A DNA stretch of 64,000 nucleotides, from contig CAYOCP010000016.1 of assembly GCA_964402505.1 (NCBI GenBank), forward strand, positions 27,853-91,852, read 5' to 3'. Below, piece after piece: positions 30,328 to 44,754 of this stretch. Positions within the stretch are counted from its first letter, which is position 1. Every line of letters starts with the position of its first letter. This DNA comes from an uncultured Geminicoccaceae bacterium (lineage in GTDB: Bacteria; Pseudomonadota; Alphaproteobacteria; Geminicoccales; Geminicoccaceae). Both the position numbers and the translations under genes were made by a program. The notes under the pieces are model-generated. The model did no database searches, had not been told where the DNA came from, and saw only the letters and a list, made by a program, of their open reading frames with translations.

Positions 30328-30523
30328 GTATTTTATCCGAAAGCTCGAGCAATTCGGGACGCGACGGGGGACGGCTCTCCTCGTCGCGGGCCTCGCCCTC
30401 GATCGTCACCGCAGCCGAGGTTCGAGAGTGACCATTGACAAGGCCACCCACAGCGTCTTACGTGAAATAAAAGAAAATACAAAATTATAGACAGAACTCC
30501 GTGTGAAAAAGAGGGGACAGCGG

Positions 30524-31051
30524 GTGAGCGAAGCACTCAGGCAACTGATCAGCGAGACGCAGAGCAGGTTCAAGACCGAGCCGGGGCGAGCGAACGTGAC
30601 CTTCGGGTCGCGGTCCGCATTGCAGGAGGGACTGCGCTCCGAGATATCGATCCGCGAGCACCGGATCGTGGTGGACGAGCCGTCCGAGCTGGGAGGAACC
30701 GACGCCGGGCCTAATCCGGTGGAGCTCATCCTGGCTGCGCTCGGCAGCTGTCAGGAGATCACCTATCGAGCGTATGCGACAGCTTTGGGCATTCCTCTGG
30801 ACAGCGTTTCGGTCACCCTCTCCGGCGCGATCGACCTGAAGGGTTTTTTCGCGGTCGACGAGAACGTACGCGCCGGCTATCAGGCGATCACCGGCACTGT
30901 GCGGCTGGAGTCGTCGGCGAGCGACGAGCAGCTCGAGATGCTGCGAACCGTAGTCAACGCGCACTGCCCGGTGCTCGACATCATCAACAAGCCGGTGCCG
31001 GTGGCACTCGATCTGGTTGTCGAACGGCCCGTGGCGGTTGCAGCGGGGTAA
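30524..31051 (+). CDS. OsmC/Ohr-family peroxiredoxin-like protein
   Basis: ELGGTDAGPNPVELILAALGSCQEITY and NAHCPV motifs. GTG 30524 follows AGAGGGGA; the tracked start at 30503 (GTG) is the alternative. Confidence 0.85.
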   Translation: MSEALRQLISETQSRFKTEPGRANVTFGSRSALQEGLRSEISIREHRIVVDEPSELGGTDAGPNPVELILAALGSCQEITYRAYATALGIPLDSVSVTLSGAIDLKGFFAVDENVRAGYQAITGTVRLESSASDEQLEMLRTVVNAHCPVLDIINKPVPVALDLVVERPVAVAAG

Positions 31052-31722: not shown

Positions 31723-31915
31723 CGCAAGGCTCCTCCGCCAGGGTCAGAACAGCGCAAATGTCGAGCAGACCGGCGGACGGACCGGCAATCCATCGCTCCC
31801 GCCACGCACGGATCGAGAATACCACGAGGGGCCACCGGTATTGCGATCGATCCGACGCGTGTTGCCGCACCGAGGGATGCTTTCATGCTTCTGAGGCGGA
31901 ACGGGCGCCCGAACC

Positions 31916-32308
31916 CTATGTCTCGAAACGCCCTTTGGTGTCACGATCGCGCGCGTAGCGTCGCCCGAGCGGAAAGGGCGGCAGCCAGGACTCCCGCCGA
32001 ACGGTCCAGCTCTCGTAGGTCGGCACGAGCCGGTCCGGCGCATCGAGGCATCCCAGGCTCACCTCGACCTCGTCACCGGTGCGGGCGAAGACCGACGAGC
32101 CGCAGCGGGGACAGAAGAACCGGCCGGCGAAGTCGCGCGTCTCGCCCTCGATCGTCACCGCATCCCCGGGGAACACCGCGATCGCCTGGAAGAGGGCCCC
32201 GTGATGCTTGCGGCAGTCGAGGCAGTGGCAGATACCGACCCGGTAGGGCCGCCCCGACGCAACGAGCCGCACGTCACCGCAGAGACAGCCGCCCGTGAAC
32301 CTATCCAT
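31916..32308 (-). CDS. GFA-family (CENP-V/glutathione-dependent formaldehyde-activating) zinc protein
   Basis: GGCLCGDVR..., ICHCLDCRKHHG, FCPRCGS cysteine pattern; 130 aa. Confidence 0.85.
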   Translation of the reverse strand: MDRFTGGCLCGDVRLVASGRPYRVGICHCLDCRKHHGALFQAIAVFPGDAVTIEGETRDFAGRFFCPRCGSSVFARTGDEVEVSLGCLDAPDRLVPTYESWTVRRESWLPPFPLGRRYARDRDTKGRFET

Positions 32309-32322
32309 GCTTGCGGGTCACC

Positions 32323-32562
32323 TCAGGCGATCGCTGGCGCCGCGTATATCGCCGGCCGATAGCGCGGCTCGGGGATCGGGTCGCCGTGCTCCATGGCGCT
32401 TTCGAGCCATGCCTGCACGGCGACCTGCACCTCGCGGGCAGCCATCTCCGGGCTGTCACCGAAAGCGGAGCAGAAGCGGAGATCCGGGACGTCCGCGACC
32501 CAGCACTCGTCCTCCGCCGACCAGAAGATATTGATGTGATAGGGCGTCGATCTGTCAGTCAT
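32323..32562 (-). CDS. hicB: HicB-family antitoxin
   Basis: 79 aa: YHINIFWSAEDECWVADVPDLRFCSAFGDSPEMAAREVQVAVQAWLESAMEHGDPIPEP is the HicB/UPF0150 RNase-H-like fold pattern. Overlaps the hicA stop by 8 nt. Confidence 0.8.
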   Translation of the reverse strand: MTDRSTPYHINIFWSAEDECWVADVPDLRFCSAFGDSPEMAAREVQVAVQAWLESAMEHGDPIPEPRYRPAIYAAPAIA

Positions 32563-32803
32563 CGAGGGTCAATCCCGCGGCTTCGACGAGTTGGAAGAGC
32601 TGGCGCACCTGGTAGGGCGTCGCCCGCCCCCCTTGCGGCTGCACATTCATCCGCTGCCGCAGTGGCGGATGATACCAGATTCGATGGCTGCCCGTCTGGC
32701 GATCGAGCACGAAGCCGAAGGCCACCAGGGGCCGTTCGAAGTCAGTGAAGCGAACATTCCTGCTGCCGTCGAGGATCGACTGCCAGACCCGACTGGGCCT
32801 CAT
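32555..32803 (-). CDS. hicA: HicA-family mRNA interferase toxin
   Basis: 82 aa: ...VRFTDFERPLVAFGFVLDRQTGSHRIWYHPPLRQRMNVQPQGGRATPYQVRQLFQLVEAAGL (GSH...KPYQV-type HicA). ATG 32803 lies inside tracked ORF 32555..32851. Weak RBS. Confidence 0.72.
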   Translation of the reverse strand: MRPSRVWQSILDGSRNVRFTDFERPLVAFGFVLDRQTGSHRIWYHPPLRQRMNVQPQGGRATPYQVRQLFQLVEAAGLTLDD

Positions 32804-32819
32804 CAGAAAATGGTGCCCG

Positions 32820-33521
32820 CTACTCGACCTCGCGGAACCGTCCGGACGCACTCAGCGCCGCCCAGAAATCGGGCTGCTTCAGCCCCCCCTTGACCCGCGC
32901 GTCCATGGCCGCCTCGGCCGCCTTGATCAGGGGCAGCTTCTCGATGGTGGCGGCGATCCAGGCATGCGGCACGACCACGACGCCGTCCTCGTCGCCGACG
33001 GCGATGTCGCCCGGGCCGATGGCGAGGCCGCCCGCCTGCACGGGAAGGCCGACCGTGCCCGGCCCGCTCTTGGCCGGCGAGTTCGGCGTGACGCCGGAGG
33101 CGTAGCAGGGCAGGCCCACGGCGCGGATGCCGACGATGTCGCGCACGAAGCCGTCGGTGACGAAGGCCACGACCCCCTTGTTCCGCAGCATGCCGAGCAG
33201 GAGGTCGCCGATGATGGCCGCCTCGGCGAAGGAATCGGCTGCGGCGATCACGACGTCGCCGGGCTCGGCGATCTCGAGCGCCCCGAAGACGGCGAGGTTG
33301 TCGGCCGGCCCCGCCTCGCAGGGCACGACGACGCCGGTGAAGGGGCCGCTTTTGTCGATCGGCTTGATCCGACCGTCGAGGGCACCCCGGCCGCCGCCGC
33401 GCGCCGCGAGCAGCGCGTCGGCCACGAAGCCGGTGGGAAGGCCGGCGAAGGCCTCGACCTGCGCAGGGGTCGGCCGCGCAAAGCGCCGGCGGATGGTGAG
33501 CAGCGGAACTTCGTCGATCAT
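32820..33521 (-). CDS. RraA-family protein (HMG/CHA aldolase-like / RNase E regulator fold)
   Basis: 233 aa: ...FGALEIAEPGDVVIAAADSFAEAAIIGDLLLGMLRNKGVVAFVTDGFVRDIVGI...GLPVQAGGLAIGPGDIAVGDEDGVVVVP. ATGA overlap with the upstream oxidase gene. Confidence 0.85.
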   Translation of the reverse strand: MIDEVPLLTIRRRFARPTPAQVEAFAGLPTGFVADALLAARGGGRGALDGRIKPIDKSGPFTGVVVPCEAGPADNLAVFGALEIAEPGDVVIAAADSFAEAAIIGDLLLGMLRNKGVVAFVTDGFVRDIVGIRAVGLPCYASGVTPNSPAKSGPGTVGLPVQAGGLAIGPGDIAVGDEDGVVVVPHAWIAATIEKLPLIKAAEAAMDARVKGGLKQPDFWAALSASGRFREVE

Positions 33522-34699
33522 GGCTCGATGCCTCCAAGGCTGATCCGGTTGCCCCGATGGGCCAGAAGATCGGGGCCGATATCGGCGATGCGCGCAACGC
33601 CCGAGAGGCCCATGGCGCGGTCGAGCTCCTCGTGCAACAGCGCCAGCACCCGGGCGACCCCGGCTTCGCCCGCGACCGCGAGCCCCCAGAGCTGCGGCCG
33701 GCCGATCAGGCAGCAATCGGCGCCGAGCGCCAGGGCCTTCAGGACGTCGACGCCACGCCGCACGCCGCCGTCGAGCAGGATGGGCATCCGGCCGCCCACC
33801 TCGCGCGCGATCTCGGGCAGTGCGTCGAGCGCTGACGCCGCCCCGTCGAGCTGCCGCCCGCCATGGTTCGAGACGATGATGGCATCCACGCCGTGCTCCC
33901 GGGCGCGGCGCGCCTCGTCCGGATGCAGCACGCCCTTGAGCACGAGGGGCCCCTTCCAGTGCTCGCGCAGCGCCTCGACATCGCGCCAGCTCATCGCCGG
34001 ATCGAGCAGGCCCGCCATGCGGCCGGCGAGCGTCTTGATGTCGGCGCTCTCGCCGGCACGGACATAGTTGCCGAAGGTCAGCTTCGGCAACTCCTTGCGC
34101 ATCCGCCAGAGCCAGGGCACCCGCGTCGCCATGCCGAGATAGTCGAGCGGGCGGAAGCGCGGCGGGATGCCGAAGCCGTTGACGATGTCACGTTCGCGCT
34201 TGCCGAGAAGCTGGTTGTCGATGGTCAGGACGAGCGCGTCGTAGCCGGCGGCGGCGGCACGGTCGGTGAGCTCCCTCGTGAAGCCGCGGTCCCGGTAGAC
34301 GAAGACCTGCATCCAGCGCGGCGCCGCACCCGTCTCGGCCAGCCGCTCGAGCGTGCAGACCGAGCCGTGGCTGAGGCAATAGGCGGTGCCGGCGGCGGCC
34401 GCGGCGCGCGCCGCGCAGAGCTCGCCATCGGGCCAGTAGAGACCGGCGAGCCCGGTCGGGCCGATCATCAGAGGCATCGACAGCCGGCGGCCCAGAAGCT
34501 CGATCGAGGTATTGCGCTCCGCCGCTCCCTCGAGCGGGCGCGGCAGCAGCGCCACATCGAGAAAGGCTGCCTCGTTGCGGCGGAGCGTGCGCTCGTCCTC
34601 GGCACCGCCATCGGCGAAGTCGAAGACCGGCCGCGGCAGCACGCGCCGCGCCCGCCTTCGCATCTCGCTCACATTGAACGCACGCTCGAGCCCGGACAT
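33518..34699 (-). CDS. FMN-dependent alpha-hydroxy-acid oxidase/dehydrogenase (LldD / glycolate oxidase family)
   Basis: 393 aa: PVFDFADGGAEDERTLRRN, PLMIGPTG, VLKGV, IIVSNHGGRQLDG, LLDGGVRRGVDVLKALALGA. Confidence 0.9.
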   Translation of the reverse strand: MSGLERAFNVSEMRRRARRVLPRPVFDFADGGAEDERTLRRNEAAFLDVALLPRPLEGAAERNTSIELLGRRLSMPLMIGPTGLAGLYWPDGELCAARAAAAAGTAYCLSHGSVCTLERLAETGAAPRWMQVFVYRDRGFTRELTDRAAAAGYDALVLTIDNQLLGKRERDIVNGFGIPPRFRPLDYLGMATRVPWLWRMRKELPKLTFGNYVRAGESADIKTLAGRMAGLLDPAMSWRDVEALREHWKGPLVLKGVLHPDEARRAREHGVDAIIVSNHGGRQLDGAASALDALPEIAREVGGRMPILLDGGVRRGVDVLKALALGADCCLIGRPQLWGLAVAGEAGVARVLALLHEELDRAMGLSGVARIADIGPDLLAHRGNRISLGGIEP

Positions 34700-34721
34700 G
34701 TCGGTCGCGGCTCCCGGTCCG

Positions 34722-35843
34722 TCAGAGCGGATAGCGCAGGATCGCCGCGAGCGACGCACCCTCCGGCAAATCCGCCCGGCGCACGCCCAGAACCCTCGCC
34801 CCGCCCGCCAGGGCCCGGATGGCGATCTCGTCGACTACGCCGTAGGAGGTGGCGTCCTCGGCCTCGGCGAAGCGCACCTTGCCGTCGGCCTCGTCGACCC
34901 AGCCCGGCACCACGGCGTCGATGTCGACCATGAGCGATTCGATGGCGCAGAAGGTCGCGGCACGCGCGGCCTGGGCGATATCGGCGGTGGCCCGCCCCTG
35001 GTTGGCACGGGCGGCGTAGAGCCGCCGCAGCTCCTCGACCTCCCCGGCATAGAGCGCATCGAGCAGCGGCCGCGCCGCCTCGGCGAGCTCCGCATCGGTC
35101 ATCCGGTCGGGGCTCTTCGTGATCTGCGACGGGGCGAGATGGGGGTAGGTGTTGACCGAGCGGAAGATGTCGTCGACCGGCCGCGTCGCCGCCAGGATCA
35201 GCGGCGTCTCGCGACCGGAGAGGAGAGGCCGAAGTGCGGTGTTGACGGCCCGCGCGAACTGGCGGAGCCGCACCTTCTCGCCTTCGGCGGCGTGAATCCG
35301 TCCGCTCGGCGAGCGATGACCGATCGCCGCCTTGCCGACGGCGCTCGCGGCATCCTTCGGCATGCCGGGCACCCTGACCTCCTGCGGTGGCAGCTCGGCG
35401 AAGACCTCGACGAGGCGCACCGCGTTGTGCGAGAGCGCGAGGACGAGCGCCTCGTTGGGAAAGGTCACCGCGCGCAGCAGCGGCTTCAGGTGGAACCGGT
35501 CGGCGACCTGCGCCGTGGCATGCAGGCTGTTCGGCAGCCGGAACGTCCAGTGCCGCTCGGGCGTCAGGAAGACGGCGAGGCTGCGCGCCTGCAGCCGCCA
35601 GAATTCGTCGTCGTCGTGCAGCTCCTGGAGCTGCTCCTCGATCGCCGCCATTCGCCGCTTGTCGCCACCGGCCGCCTCGAGCTGGGCCAGGGCCTGCGCT
35701 CCGAGATTCTTCAAGGCGATGCGGTCGGCCTCGGCCTCCTGCGTCAGGGGCGTTGTCGGCAGGTAGATCGAGACCCGCGCCGCGCCGCGCGCCTCGGCAA
35801 GGTGGCGGATTTCGGCAGGGGTCGGCATGTCGACATGCAGCAT
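34722..35843 (-). CDS. Hypothetical protein, probable bacterial eRF1/Pelota-like (baeRF-type) fold
   Basis: 373 aa from ATG 35843: MLHVDMPTPAEIRHLAEARGAARVSIYLPTTP..., RFHLKPLL, central HRSPSGR...RLRQFARAV, and C-terminal ...ESLMVDID...GVVDEIAIRALAGGARVLGV...LAAILRYPL. The pattern matches what I remember of baeRF families, but no HMM could be run. Coding confidence is high; functional confidence is moderate. Confidence 0.55.
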   Translation of the reverse strand: MLHVDMPTPAEIRHLAEARGAARVSIYLPTTPLTQEAEADRIALKNLGAQALAQLEAAGGDKRRMAAIEEQLQELHDDDEFWRLQARSLAVFLTPERHWTFRLPNSLHATAQVADRFHLKPLLRAVTFPNEALVLALSHNAVRLVEVFAELPPQEVRVPGMPKDAASAVGKAAIGHRSPSGRIHAAEGEKVRLRQFARAVNTALRPLLSGRETPLILAATRPVDDIFRSVNTYPHLAPSQITKSPDRMTDAELAEAARPLLDALYAGEVEELRRLYAARANQGRATADIAQAARAATFCAIESLMVDIDAVVPGWVDEADGKVRFAEAEDATSYGVVDEIAIRALAGGARVLGVRRADLPEGASLAAILRYPL

Positions 35844-35972
35844 GGCGGAGCGGCTTCCTCGTGCTTGGCGATGCGTGGCGTTTAGCCCCGGCCCGCCGAA
35901 AAGGCACGCGGTTTCGCGCCGGGCGCCAAGCGTGCCCGGCTTGGCAAGGTCCGGTCGTTGCGCCAAGATGTG

Positions 35973-36731
35973 ATGACGAGGACATCATATCAGGGCACCG
36001 GCCGCATTCCGATGGCGCCGATCGCACCCATCCAACGTCGCAAGCTCTTCCAGGAGGTGCTCGATCGCCTGCTCGAGCGGCTGAGCCGGGGCGAGTTCCA
36101 GCCGGGCGACCAGTTGCCGAGCGAGCGCGAGCTGATGCAATTCTATGGCGTCGGCCGGCCGGCAGTGCGCGAGGCGCTGCAGGCGCTCGAGCGCGACGGC
36201 ATCGTCACCATCACGCATGGCGAGCGGGCTCGGGTCGCCATGCCTTCGGCCGAGCGGGTGATCGAGCAGATCGCCCACAGCACGCGCCATCTGCTGCGCG
36301 CCGGCCCCGGCAATCTCGACCACCTGAAGGACGCGCGCCTGTTTCTCGAGACGGGGCTCGCCCGCCGCGCCGCCCTCGCCGCCACGCCCGAGGCCGTGGC
36401 CCGCCTGCGGGCGCGCTTCACCGCCCACGAGGAAGCCGGGCGGCAGGATCGAGACGCGTTCCTGCGGCGCGACATGGAGTTCCACCGCGAGATCGCCACA
36501 ATGGTCGGCAATCCGATCTTCCCGGCGCTGATCGAGGCGATGTTCGACTGGCTCGGCAGCTACTACGTCCAGCTCGTGCGCGTGCGGGGTGCGGAGGACC
36601 TGACCATCGCCGAGCACCGGCGCATCCTCGAGGCCATCGCCGCCGGTGACGGCGAGGCGGCGGCAGCCGCCGTTCACGACCACATCTCGCGCGCCAACGC
36701 GCTCTATCGCCAGTTCGAGGTGAGCGGCTGA
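35973..36731 (+). CDS. GntR-family (FadR-subfamily) transcriptional regulator
   Basis: wHTH ...GEFQPGDQLPSERELMQFYGVGRPAVREALQALERDGIVTITHGERARV plus an all-helical FCD-type C-terminal domain. ATG 35973; the tracked ORF starts at TTG 35958. Confidence 0.85.
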   Translation: MTRTSYQGTGRIPMAPIAPIQRRKLFQEVLDRLLERLSRGEFQPGDQLPSERELMQFYGVGRPAVREALQALERDGIVTITHGERARVAMPSAERVIEQIAHSTRHLLRAGPGNLDHLKDARLFLETGLARRAALAATPEAVARLRARFTAHEEAGRQDRDAFLRRDMEFHREIATMVGNPIFPALIEAMFDWLGSYYVQLVRVRGAEDLTIAEHRRILEAIAAGDGEAAAAAVHDHISRANALYRQFEVSG

Positions 36732-36759
36732 GCGGCGCGGGCAAGGGAGGGAAGACAGC

Positions 36760-38679
36760 ATGGCTGCAACGGGCGATCCGATCCTTTACGGCACGGCGCA
36801 GCCGCCGACGGCGGCGCAGCGGCTCGAGGCCGGCCCCTTGTCGATCGACCTCGAGGGGGGTGCGGTCCGCTACGTCCGCTATGCCGGGCTCGAGGCGATC
36901 CGCGGCATCGACTATCTCGTGCGCGACGCGAGCTGGCGCACCCCCCCGGCGGCGCTCACCATCCGCCGCCGGGAGCAGTCCGAGGAGGGCTTCGTGGTCG
37001 AGCTCGATGGCGTCGTCCGCCAGGACGGGATCGACTACCGCTACAGCCAGACCATCACCGGCGGCGTCGACGGCAGCCTCGAGGTGCTGGTCGAGGCCGA
37101 GGCCGGGAAGGGCTTTCTCACCAACCGCACCGGCTTCGTCGTCCTCCACCCGATCGAGGGCACGGCCGGCCGGCCGGTCAGGGTGACGCACAAGGACGGC
37201 TCGACCAGCGAGACGACCTTTCCGGCGCTCATCAGCCCGGGCCAGCCGATCCTCGACATCAGGGCGCTCCGCCACGAGGTGGCACCCGGGCTCTTCGTCA
37301 CCTGCCGCATGGAAGCGGCGCTGCCGCAGGATGCGGAGACCATCTTCGAGATGGAGGACCAGCGCAACTGGACCGACGCCTCCTACAAGACCTATGTGGG
37401 CTCGCTGCTCGACCCTTGGCCCTACCGCATTGAGCCGGGCACGCGCCTGCGCCAGCGCGTCACCGTGACCTTCGAGGGCGAGGTGCCGGCCGGATCGGGC
37501 GGCGCCGCGGAGGGCGCCGGGCTCCGTCTCGGCCAGCGCACCGGCGGTCGTATGCCGGCGATCGGCCTCGGGCTGATGCCGGCTGGCCTGGCCGCCGCCG
37601 CTGCCGGCAATCCGGCGACAGGGCTGCGCCCCTCGTTCATCACGGCCTATGTCGAGATCGGCACCGGCGATGCCGCCCGCACGCTCGCCGACTATGCCGC
37701 CCTCGCCGGCAAGCTCGGATGCGAGGTGCAGCTCGAGCTCGTCCTGCCGGCCGGCCGACCGCCGGCCGAGCTCCTCGACGAGGCTGCCGCCGCCTGCCGG
37801 TCCGCCGGGCTCCGGCCGGCCCGGGTCCTCGCCTGCCCCGCCCCCTACCTCAAGAGCATCCAGCCGGTGGGTCCCTGGCCGGACGTTTCCGATCTCGGCC
37901 ACATCTACAACCAGGTGCGCCGCGCATTTCCCGATGCGGCGGTGCTCGGCGGCATGTGCAGCTACTTCACCGAGCTCAATCGCAAGCGGCCGCCGGCCGC
38001 CACCATCGACGGCATCGCCTGCACGACCACGCCCATCGTCCACGCCGCCGACGATCGCTCGGTCATGGAGACGCTGGAAGCCTTGCCCGCCGTGCTCGCG
38101 AGCATGCGGGCGATCGCACCGGGCAAGCCCGTGCATATCGGCCCCTCCGCCATCGCCATGCGCCACAACCCCTATGGGGCGGCCACGGCCGCCAATCCCG
38201 AAGCCGGGCGCATCGCCATGGCCCACGACGACCCGCGCCAGAGAGGCCTCTTCGCCGCCGCCTGGAGCGTCGGCTATGCCGCCGCCATGGCGAGGGGCGG
38301 TGTGGCCAGCCTCGCCCTCAACCACCTGGCCGGCCCCTCCGGCCTCGCCAGCGAAAGCGGCGAGCTCTGGCCCGTCTTCCACGTCATGGCGGCCCTCTCC
38401 CGGGCCAGCGGCGCCGAGATCGTGCCGACGGAGATCACCGGCGAGGGCATCGCGGCCCTCGCCTGGCAGATCCCGGACGGCACGCGGCTGCTCCTCGCGA
38501 ATCTGCGCCCCGAGGTCGCCGAGGTGACGTTCGACCGGCCGGTGGCCGGGCACGTTCTCGACGCCGCGGCCGCCGCCGGGCCGGCCCGATCCGCCGACTG
38601 GCCGCCCACCGGCACGCCTGTCACGCAAACAGGCGCCATGAAGCTGCCACCCTTCGCCGTGCTCTTCGCCGAGGCTTGA
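36760..38679 (+). CDS. Uncharacterised 639-aa protein (two-domain; first gene of the catabolic locus)
   Basis: Strong RBS (GGGAGGGAAG, its last base 6 nt before the ATG). The N-terminal ~250 aa look beta-rich (…FLTNRTGFVVLHPIEG…EMEDQRNWTDASYKTY…). The C-terminal ~380 aa alternate helix and strand like a barrel. No family recognised by eye. Confidence 0.75.
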   Translation: MAATGDPILYGTAQPPTAAQRLEAGPLSIDLEGGAVRYVRYAGLEAIRGIDYLVRDASWRTPPAALTIRRREQSEEGFVVELDGVVRQDGIDYRYSQTITGGVDGSLEVLVEAEAGKGFLTNRTGFVVLHPIEGTAGRPVRVTHKDGSTSETTFPALISPGQPILDIRALRHEVAPGLFVTCRMEAALPQDAETIFEMEDQRNWTDASYKTYVGSLLDPWPYRIEPGTRLRQRVTVTFEGEVPAGSGGAAEGAGLRLGQRTGGRMPAIGLGLMPAGLAAAAAGNPATGLRPSFITAYVEIGTGDAARTLADYAALAGKLGCEVQLELVLPAGRPPAELLDEAAAACRSAGLRPARVLACPAPYLKSIQPVGPWPDVSDLGHIYNQVRRAFPDAAVLGGMCSYFTELNRKRPPAATIDGIACTTTPIVHAADDRSVMETLEALPAVLASMRAIAPGKPVHIGPSAIAMRHNPYGAATAANPEAGRIAMAHDDPRQRGLFAAAWSVGYAAAMARGGVASLALNHLAGPSGLASESGELWPVFHVMAALSRASGAEIVPTEITGEGIAALAWQIPDGTRLLLANLRPEVAEVTFDRPVAGHVLDAAAAAGPARSADWPPTGTPVTQTGAMKLPPFAVLFAEA

Positions 38680-38708
38680 ACGGCGGGACCATGTGGTATA
38701 ATCAGCAG
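38676..38708 (+). promoter_or_regulatory. Putative sigma70 promoter with extended -10, copy 1 of a shared 15-mer
   Basis: TTGAAC (38676-38681), a 15-nt spacer, then TGGTATAAT. The 15-mer TGGTATAATCAGCAG (38694-38708) recurs identically at 44740-44754. Lies 55 nt upstream of the SBP gene. Confidence 0.5.
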
Positions 38709-44720: not shown

Positions 44721-44754
44721 TTGCGTCGGCGCGTCACGCTGGTATAATCAGCAG
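44721..44754 (+). promoter_or_regulatory. Putative sigma70 promoter with extended -10, copy 2 of the shared 15-mer
   Basis: TTGCGT (44721-44726), a 16-nt spacer, then TGGTATAAT. The 15-mer TGGTATAATCAGCAG (44740-44754) is identical to 38694-38708, and the next four bases also match 3/4 (TCAA vs CCAA). Confidence 0.5.

Follow-up and report, generated by a model that had tools for sequence, protein, structure and literature searches.

A Balon-like predicted ribosome hibernation factor of baeRF family 11 and its locally restricted gene string in a Geminicoccaceae genome

In 2024, Balon of Psychrobacter urativorans (AOC03_06830), Msmeg1130 and Rv2629 were identified as hibernation factors that bind the ribosomal A site (PMC10901736). 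The three proteins sit in the A site of ribosomes that are either vacant or translating; they inhibit translation and keep the peptidyl-transferase centre inactive, and EF-Tu-GDP is bound to ribosome-bound Balon and Msmeg1130 (PMC10901736). The HP motif of Balon touches A1492 and A1913, and the EF-Tu-recognition site at its C terminus includes a unique beta-loop (PMC10901736). For most baeRF families, Burroughs and Aravind predicted a non-catalytic, hibernation-linked role (PMC6514570). We analyzed a stretch of 64,000 nucleotides (the window) from an uncultured Geminicoccaceae bacterium (assembly GCA_964402505.1, contig CAYOCP010000016.1, positions 27,853 to 91,852), in which an initial annotation had placed a baeRF-type protein at the head of a tightly spaced string with a flavin mononucleotide (FMN)-dependent oxidase and an RraA-like protein. 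The string consists of the following features, arranged head to tail on the minus strand (HMG/CHA stands for 4-hydroxy-4-methyl-2-oxoglutarate/4-carboxy-4-hydroxy-2-oxoadipate):

34722-35843, minus strand: P0001, Balon-like (baeRF family 11) three-domain protein of the aeRF1 superfamily, predicted ribosome hibernation factor, 373 aa
34700-34721, minus strand: spacer of 22 nt from the P0001 stop codon to the P0002 ATG, containing the ribosome-binding site GGGAG and too short for a terminator
33518-34699, minus strand: P0002, LldD-like FMN-dependent alpha-hydroxy-acid dehydrogenase/oxidase, 393 aa (Pfam FMN_dh)
32820-33521, minus strand: P0003, RraA-fold protein of the HMG/CHA-aldolase / oxaloacetate-decarboxylase branch, 233 aa (Pfam RraA-like)

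The explanation that we favor, with a probability of about 75%, is that P0001 is a divergent Balon-type A-site hibernation factor, and that the two enzymes form an unrelated catabolic module that was placed behind it by a recent rearrangement and is probably co-transcribed with it in this lineage.

Family membership of P0001 is supported by both sequence and fold. Its baeRF middle domain (residues 129-266) matches Pfam baeRF_family11 with an E-value of 1.4e-56 and baeRF family 8 with an E-value of 9.4e-54, in both cases over the gathering threshold (PF18855, 191 bits with a cut-off of 27.2; PF18851, 182 bits). Residues 13-371 align to all 361 positions of NCBIfam NF052287 ("AOC03_06830 family ribosome hibernation factor", the family of P. 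urativorans Balon). With P0001 alone as the query, phmmer returned nothing from the PDB at E <= 1. An alignment of 32 orthologues (A1) then served as the basis of both a profile and an AlphaFold2 model. In a PDB search, the profile matched 8RD8_B from residues 10-371 versus 3-369 with an E-value of 9.1e-24; this entry carries the label "methyl-accepting chemotaxis protein" in the sequence file, and is the Balon chain (Foldseek lists it among the Balon-ribosome structures). The AlphaFold2 model (mean predicted local distance difference test score, pLDDT, of 85; predicted template-modelling score, pTM, of 0.75) had ribosome-bound Balon (8RDV, 8RDW, 8RD8) and Msmeg1130 (8V9J, 8V9L) as its five top Foldseek matches in the PDB, with template-modelling (TM) scores of 0.68-0.73 over about 385 columns. 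Rv2629 (8V9K) followed with 0.62, and aRF1, eRF1, Pelota and Dom34 with 0.2-0.47, of which aRF1 and eRF1 reached 0.40-0.47.

The initial annotation had recognized a baeRF-type protein of the aeRF1/Pelota superfamily and had suggested a search with family models and a Foldseek comparison of an AlphaFold model. Both were run and bear the assignment out, the first by the Pfam scores and the second by recovering the eRF1/Pelota fold, with Balon and Msmeg1130 ahead. Its statement that such proteins are experimentally uncharacterised no longer holds, since Balon, Msmeg1130 and Rv2629, the best profile and structure matches here, were characterised in 2024 (PMC10901736).

P0001 has orthologues in Alpha- and Gammaproteobacteria, Gemmatimonadota and Myxococcota; they are 55-70% identical, and 80 alignment columns are invariant. 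Ratios of nonsynonymous to synonymous substitution rates between P0001 and its four closest orthologues were 0.15-0.23, indicating purifying selection. Strong conservation together with low ratios fits binding to a highly conserved partner.

P0001 shares with Balon, Msmeg1130 and Rv2629 the three-domain aeRF1-like architecture, over which the proteins align end to end. GGQ and NIKS are absent from P0001 and from all 32 orthologues, and likewise from Balon. A long flexible loop in the middle domain, followed by an Arg-rich helix, is also common to the two proteins; disorder is predicted for the loop of P0001 (residues ~157-186; pLDDT 49-60), and the helix after it carries the conserved R192, R198 and R205. 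The C domain of P0001 contains a conserved beta-hairpin (residues 313-325, with G314, D317 and G321 invariant), which may correspond to the beta-loop of Balon. Finally, as in 38% of Balon-bearing species (PMC10901736), there is more than one copy in the genome. Identity between Balon and P0001 is nevertheless only ~18-20%, and where Balon has its HP motif, P0001 has a conserved TTPLTQ loop (T30-T31-P32-L33-T34-Q35), in which T34-Q35 lies opposite the HP of Balon and of the paralogue P0123 in two independent alignments. With HP replaced in this way, the contact to the decoding centre may differ in detail. The likeness to aeRF1 and Pelota (Dom34) extends to the fold and the domain order (Foldseek E-values 1e-13 to 1e-5). 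P0001 differs from them in the low TM scores, in the absence of NIKS, GGQ and loop A, and in being a bacterial protein spread by lateral transfer.

By homology, P0001 would enter the 70S ribosome at the A site when cells are stressed or in stationary phase, with its N domain at the decoding centre, its middle domain beside the peptidyl-transferase centre and its C domain facing EF-Tu, and would in this way silence and protect ribosomes. It would release no peptide, because GGQ is absent and a Gln that follows the invariant E187-G188 of the middle-domain loop in most orthologues is not conserved. For the enzymes, we suggest that P0002 would oxidise a 2-hydroxy acid to a 2-oxo acid, and that P0003, as a class II aldolase/decarboxylase, would cleave or decarboxylate the product.

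Several observations weigh against a Balon-type role. At 111.4 bits, P0001 misses the NF052287 equivalog cut-off of 330; judged by these scores, it is a member of a sister subfamily and not a Psychrobacter-type Balon equivalog. The HP dipeptide is absent from it. No stress gene of the kind found next to Balon genes (RaiA, Hsp20 and others) is recurrent near its orthologues (about 75 loci; Usp in 2, Hsp70 in 1). The operon-like gap of 22 nt, the ATGA overlap and a promoter-like element present in five genomes make co-regulation with the enzymes possible, and what is known of the subfamily comes from sequence and predicted fold. As to the neighbours, Balon genes tend to sit with stress genes (RaiA/HPF, Hsp20, OsmC and others), which is a tendency and not a requirement (PMC10901736).

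The Pfam family baeRF11 and the functional class of Balon are known; the specific subfamily is uncharacterised and has no HP motif. Recognition of Balon-type factors dates only from 2024, and no more than three of these proteins have been studied. The orthogroup of P0001 is a widespread and exceptionally conserved branch, and its lack of the HP motif makes it a reasonable test of the generality of the Balon mechanism.

More than 590 species-level genomes carry the P0001 orthogroup, and thousands of metagenomic proteins match it. A pattern scan with one genome per GTDB species gave at least 593 orthologue-bearing stretches, the best 80 of which, with 8-kb flanks, were compared as loci L001-L080 by tblastn with the window proteins. 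In addition, we sampled 61 genomes of the same GTDB family, with a flank of 1.5 kb checked; 22 of them, from 11 of 29 genera, have a P0001 orthologue. Alphaproteobacterial genus names were not found in the part of the Balon paper's supplementary text that was available.

The host assembly (4.48 Mb, 99% complete) contains a second Balon-like homologue, P0123, on another contig (G000:C5:39181-40329; L082:1498-2649, minus strand), with 29-31% identity to P0001. This canonical Balon-like protein belongs to Pfam baeRF family 3, scores above P0001 against NF052287 (171.6 bits) and keeps an HRHHP sequence; a gene with CBS and DUF2267 domains lies directly upstream. P0123 is present in only 2 of the 61 family genomes, the host and one close relative, and was therefore probably acquired recently. 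A single HPF/RaiA gene is found on a third contig of the host genome.

The gene string is not conserved along with the Balon-like gene. Among the 80 loci, FMN_dh and RraA-like genes lie directly downstream of it only in L001-L004, Geminicoccaceae metagenome-assembled genomes (MAGs) in which the Balon-like protein is 84-85% identical to P0001. An unrelated FMN_dh gene of 38% identity lies in opposite orientation in L017, and in the 75 other loci (Balon-like protein 55-70% identical) tblastn revealed no FMN_dh or RraA-like gene. Similarly, among the 22 family genomes with an orthologue, LldD occurs in the downstream flank only in the host and in G043. Of two genomes from the same genus, with orthologues of 68% and 71% identity, G022 has no LldD in the downstream flank and in G058 the locus ends at the Balon-like gene; at E <= 1e-60, LldD has no match in either assembly. 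The adjacency of the Balon-like gene and the enzymes therefore carries no conserved functional link. It is a local novelty, a recent rearrangement in a single Geminicoccaceae lineage below genus level, which would have put the enzyme module next to the Balon-like gene. The initial annotation had treated the string as a meaningful association and had proposed a neighbourhood census of homologues; with the arrangement confined to the host and four genomes at 84-85% identity, the census contradicts that part of its claim. The demonstration of a recent juxtaposition avoids a false guilt-by-association of hibernation with RraA or oxidase chemistry.

No other neighbour took the place of the enzymes. 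In an all-versus-all clustering of open reading frames (ORFs) from the 80 loci, no neighbour family exceeded 10 loci except antisense shadow ORFs of the Balon-like gene itself. When the nearest genes on either side were tallied by Pfam family, no family exceeded 5 of 77 loci; the most frequent one (5 loci, mostly Geminicoccaceae) comprises P-type cation ATPases. Outside the clade of the host and L001-L004, 44 of 69 loci have a downstream neighbour of opposite orientation, and a co-oriented neighbour within 60 nt is present downstream in only 7 of 69 loci and upstream in only 3 of 73 (counts resting on crude gene calls from the GC content of third codon positions). These statistics suggest that the Balon-like gene is usually a stand-alone unit that moves between contexts. 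An alphaproteobacterial general-stress (EcfG) promoter, GGAAC-N15-18-CGTT, was seen upstream of 1 of the 80 orthologues with a strict pattern and of 4 with a relaxed one (~1.6 expected), and only ribosome-binding-site k-mers were enriched in these upstream regions. An OsmC-like gene (30503-31051, plus strand) lies 1.8 kb past the RraA-like gene of the window; OsmC is a frequent neighbour of Balon (PMC10901736). Between it and P0001 are the RraA-like and LldD genes, hicAB, a GFA gene and a lipoprotein gene.

P0002 contains a full-length FMN_dh domain (Pfam E-value 4e-134) and the SNHGGRQ catalytic segment, as do the LldD, L-lactate oxidase and glycolate oxidase enzymes. It falls below the cut-offs for LldD (NF033901, 312 versus 550 bits; PRK11197, 343 versus 376 bits) and for L-lactate oxidase, and indeed reaches no named equivalog cut-off in NCBIfam. 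In the PDB, it is most closely related to L-lactate oxidase, hydroxyacid oxidase 1 and mandelate dehydrogenase. Its orthologues are found in varied catabolic contexts.

P0003 matches Pfam RraA-like (E-value 2.8e-33), and its best NCBIfam model is PRK06201, an unnamed subfamily (165 bits). The models for CHA aldolase/oxaloacetate decarboxylase give 106.7 bits (cut-off 179) and 93.8 bits (cut-off 304.5), so P0003 stays below the equivalog cut-offs of that enzyme. The closest solved structure is nevertheless an HMG/CHA aldolase (3NOJ, E-value 1.7e-22), which is similar in length (238 versus 233 aa) and has an R-D pair that is aligned and kept in P0003. We take this pair to be the catalytic residues of 3NOJ. 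RraA of P. aeruginosa (3C8O) is the weakest PDB match among the matches listed, and the RraA model PRK09372 is reached with 46.9 bits only (cut-off 136), for a protein of 233 aa versus ~161 aa. The hint of the initial annotation at RNase E regulation is thus not borne out, and the reading of P0003 as an RNase E regulator was rejected on the RraA score and on 3NOJ as the closest solved relative.

Orthologues of P0002 with 55-73% identity occur in 40 of the 61 family genomes. At three loci from another genus (L160:5150-7959, L161:5504-8273, L162:1099-3863), a transglutaminase-like gene, LldD and an RraA-like gene follow each other, and there is no Balon gene. The closest orthologue outside the clade (73%; L164:5255-9219) lies in a string of Amidohydro_2, LldD, a D-2-hydroxyacid dehydrogenase (2-Hacid_dh) and an HpcH/HpaI aldolase. 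In these other Geminicoccaceae genera, the LldD strings are recurrent but variable small catabolic modules. The presence of an adjacent RraA-fold aldolase, or of an HpcH-fold aldolase two genes downstream, supports oxidation of a 2-hydroxy acid followed by cleavage or decarboxylation. Among 300 sampled alphaproteobacterial genomes, RraA-like homologues (33-57% identity) were never adjacent to LldD, so the LldD-RraA pair itself is only locally conserved.

In the window, the P0001 stop codon ends at 34722 and the P0002 ATG is at 34699, with the GGGAG Shine-Dalgarno sequence in the gap between them; a short spacer is also present in L001-L004. P0002 and P0003 overlap by ATGA, sharing positions 33518-33521. 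The 373-aa ORF, this spacing and overlap, and the peptide motifs quoted in the initial annotation (VSIYLPT at residue 24, RFHLKPLL at 116, RLRQFARAV at 192, GVVDEIAIRALAGGARVLGV at 335 and LAAILRY at 365) are all present in the sequence. The longest ORF over P0001 begins at TTG 35966. We place the start at ATG 35843, which is preceded by AGGAAG, because thousands of homologues have 373 aa and an N-terminus of MLHVD or MLYVD. Scans of 31800-36900 for consensus sigma-70 promoters and for intrinsic terminators gave 0 matches each, which is uninformative in DNA of 70% GC.

On the other side, the Balon-like gene faces a divergent regulator, and in related genomes a further gene stands between the two. 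The features concerned are:

35971-35992, minus strand: intergenic element, candidate promoter/operator of the divergent gntR / Balon unit (from its conservation; function inferred)
35958-36731, plus strand: GntR/FCD (NanR-like) regulator heading a D-apionate lactonase / sugar ABC transporter locus (Pfam, NCBIfam)
L002:5237-7978, L003:5228-7978, L004:6476-7978, L064:5089-7950 and L163:278-3085: P2A-type ATPase

The P2A-type ATPase (913-953 aa) ends 23-51 nt before the Balon-like gene in L002-L004, L064 and L163 (same genus), and its best models are PMR1- and SERCA-like Ca2+ ATPases. This arrangement recalls CtpF, a P2A ATPase of the mycobacterial dormancy regulon. The ATPase may be the older and more meaningful partner of the Balon-like gene in Geminicoccaceae. 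The window and L001 have lost it and have the divergent gntR as the immediate upstream neighbour; no convincing alignment to an ATPase remnant was obtained in the 117 nt upstream of P0001. The part of the intergenic region next to gntR is almost identical in the window and L001-L004, whether it precedes Balon or the ATPase. It contains, at 35971-35992, an extended -10-like sequence TGATATGAT (TGGTATGAT in relatives), that is TG(G/A)TATGAT, followed by the inverted repeat TGATG-N7-CATCA, all oriented towards the Balon-like or ATPase gene. It resembles TGGTATAAT elements that stand ahead of two operons in the adjacent apiose locus (GGTATAAT at 38695-38702 and 44741-44748, plus strand). The intergenic element is a candidate promoter/operator and nothing more.

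NanR of E. coli recognises GGTATA repeats. The GntR/FCD regulator scores 298.6 bits against the NCBIfam NanR model PRK03837 (cut-off 260). Its relatives align from residue 15 onward only, and the true start is probably ATG 36012. Together with it, the plus-strand neighbours, which are part of a D-apiose/apionate locus, comprise an ApnL-like lactonase, a sugar ABC transporter and a Gfo/Idh/MocA dehydrogenase.

These features bear on the idea that all three genes of the string belong to one genuine operon, specific to the lineage and controlled by the NanR-like GntR protein, by which hibernation would be tied to a sugar acid or carbon source. The 22-nt gap, the ATGA overlap and the lack of a detected terminator would fit, as would the TG(G/A)TATGAT element with its palindrome, which is kept in five clade genomes and points to Balon, and the related elements ahead of the two apiose-locus operons. 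A 5.9-kb contig from run X21, a biogas-fermenter library labelled metagenomic RNA-Seq, moreover covers the order RraA-LldD-Balon-gntR (window 32911-36100) in a relative of ~87% identity, in which 114 nt around the Balon-LldD junction are replaced. Because this contig spans the oppositely oriented gntR, it may derive from DNA and is no proof of co-transcription. The conserved element could equally serve autoregulation of gntR, the P-type ATPase stands between regulator and Balon in 3 of the 5 clade genomes, and the arrangement is confined to five very close genomes, so that we regard a true operon of this kind as unlikely. Some room, though little, is left for the view that the baeRF11 subfamily is a mechanistically distinct Balon type, in which the TTPLTQ loop contacts the decoding centre in a different way and which perhaps acts on another ribosome state than the HP-type paralogue, lineage-wise perhaps within a sugar-acid-responsive (NanR-like) unit. 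If true, the NanR-like wiring would couple hibernation to carbon supply.

Two further readings would give the proteins of the string a different biochemical role. P0001 could be active in peptide release or ribosome rescue, in the manner of aeRF1, Pelota or Vms1, with stalled ribosomes or peptidyl-tRNA as its target; its model has the aeRF1/Pelota fold, rescue roles were proposed for baeRF proteins by Burroughs and Aravind (PMC6514570), and most orthologues have the Gln after the invariant E-G of the middle-domain loop. That Gln is however not invariant, being Glu in P0001 and its closest relatives, and this speaks against a peptidyl-tRNA hydrolase. P0001 has no GGQ, the model predicts disorder in the loop, and the characterised relatives hold the peptidyl-transferase centre inactive (PMC10901736); taken together, these points render an active factor quite improbable. 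The RraA fold of P0003 and its translational coupling with the upstream genes could also be read as signs of an RNase E regulator allied with the baeRF protein in RNA or ribosome protection, with the oxidase as a redox sensor. This is scarcely credible given the RraA score and length of P0003, the closer relationship to the 3NOJ aldolase with its conserved R-D pair, the existence of LldD-RraA pairs without a Balon gene (L160-L162), and the clustering of LldD in L164 with an aldolase of a different fold two genes downstream. We accordingly retain the reading of P0001 as a Balon-type factor next to an unrelated module.

Downstream of the string, the host genome differs from its relatives by an inserted toxin-antitoxin pair:

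32555-32803 (hicA) and 32323-32562 (hicB), minus strand: toxin-antitoxin pair (Pfam HicA_toxin, E-value 4.5e-9; HicB_lk_antitox, E-value 4.8e-7)

hicA begins 16 nt past the RraA-like stop codon and is overlapped by hicB by 8 nt. It had no tblastn match in any of the 80 loci, and the insertion of hicAB behind the RraA-like gene is unique to the host genome. In L001, L003 and L004, a GFA gene follows ~600-700 nt after the RraA-like gene. In L004 (8001-10337), the Balon-like gene has a 1-nt indel close to its 3' end, which creates an ORF of 779 aa that is fused to FMN_dh and has no conserved LAAILRY tail; this is either a sequencing error in the MAG or a real frameshift. The window derives from landfill and sludge metagenomes.

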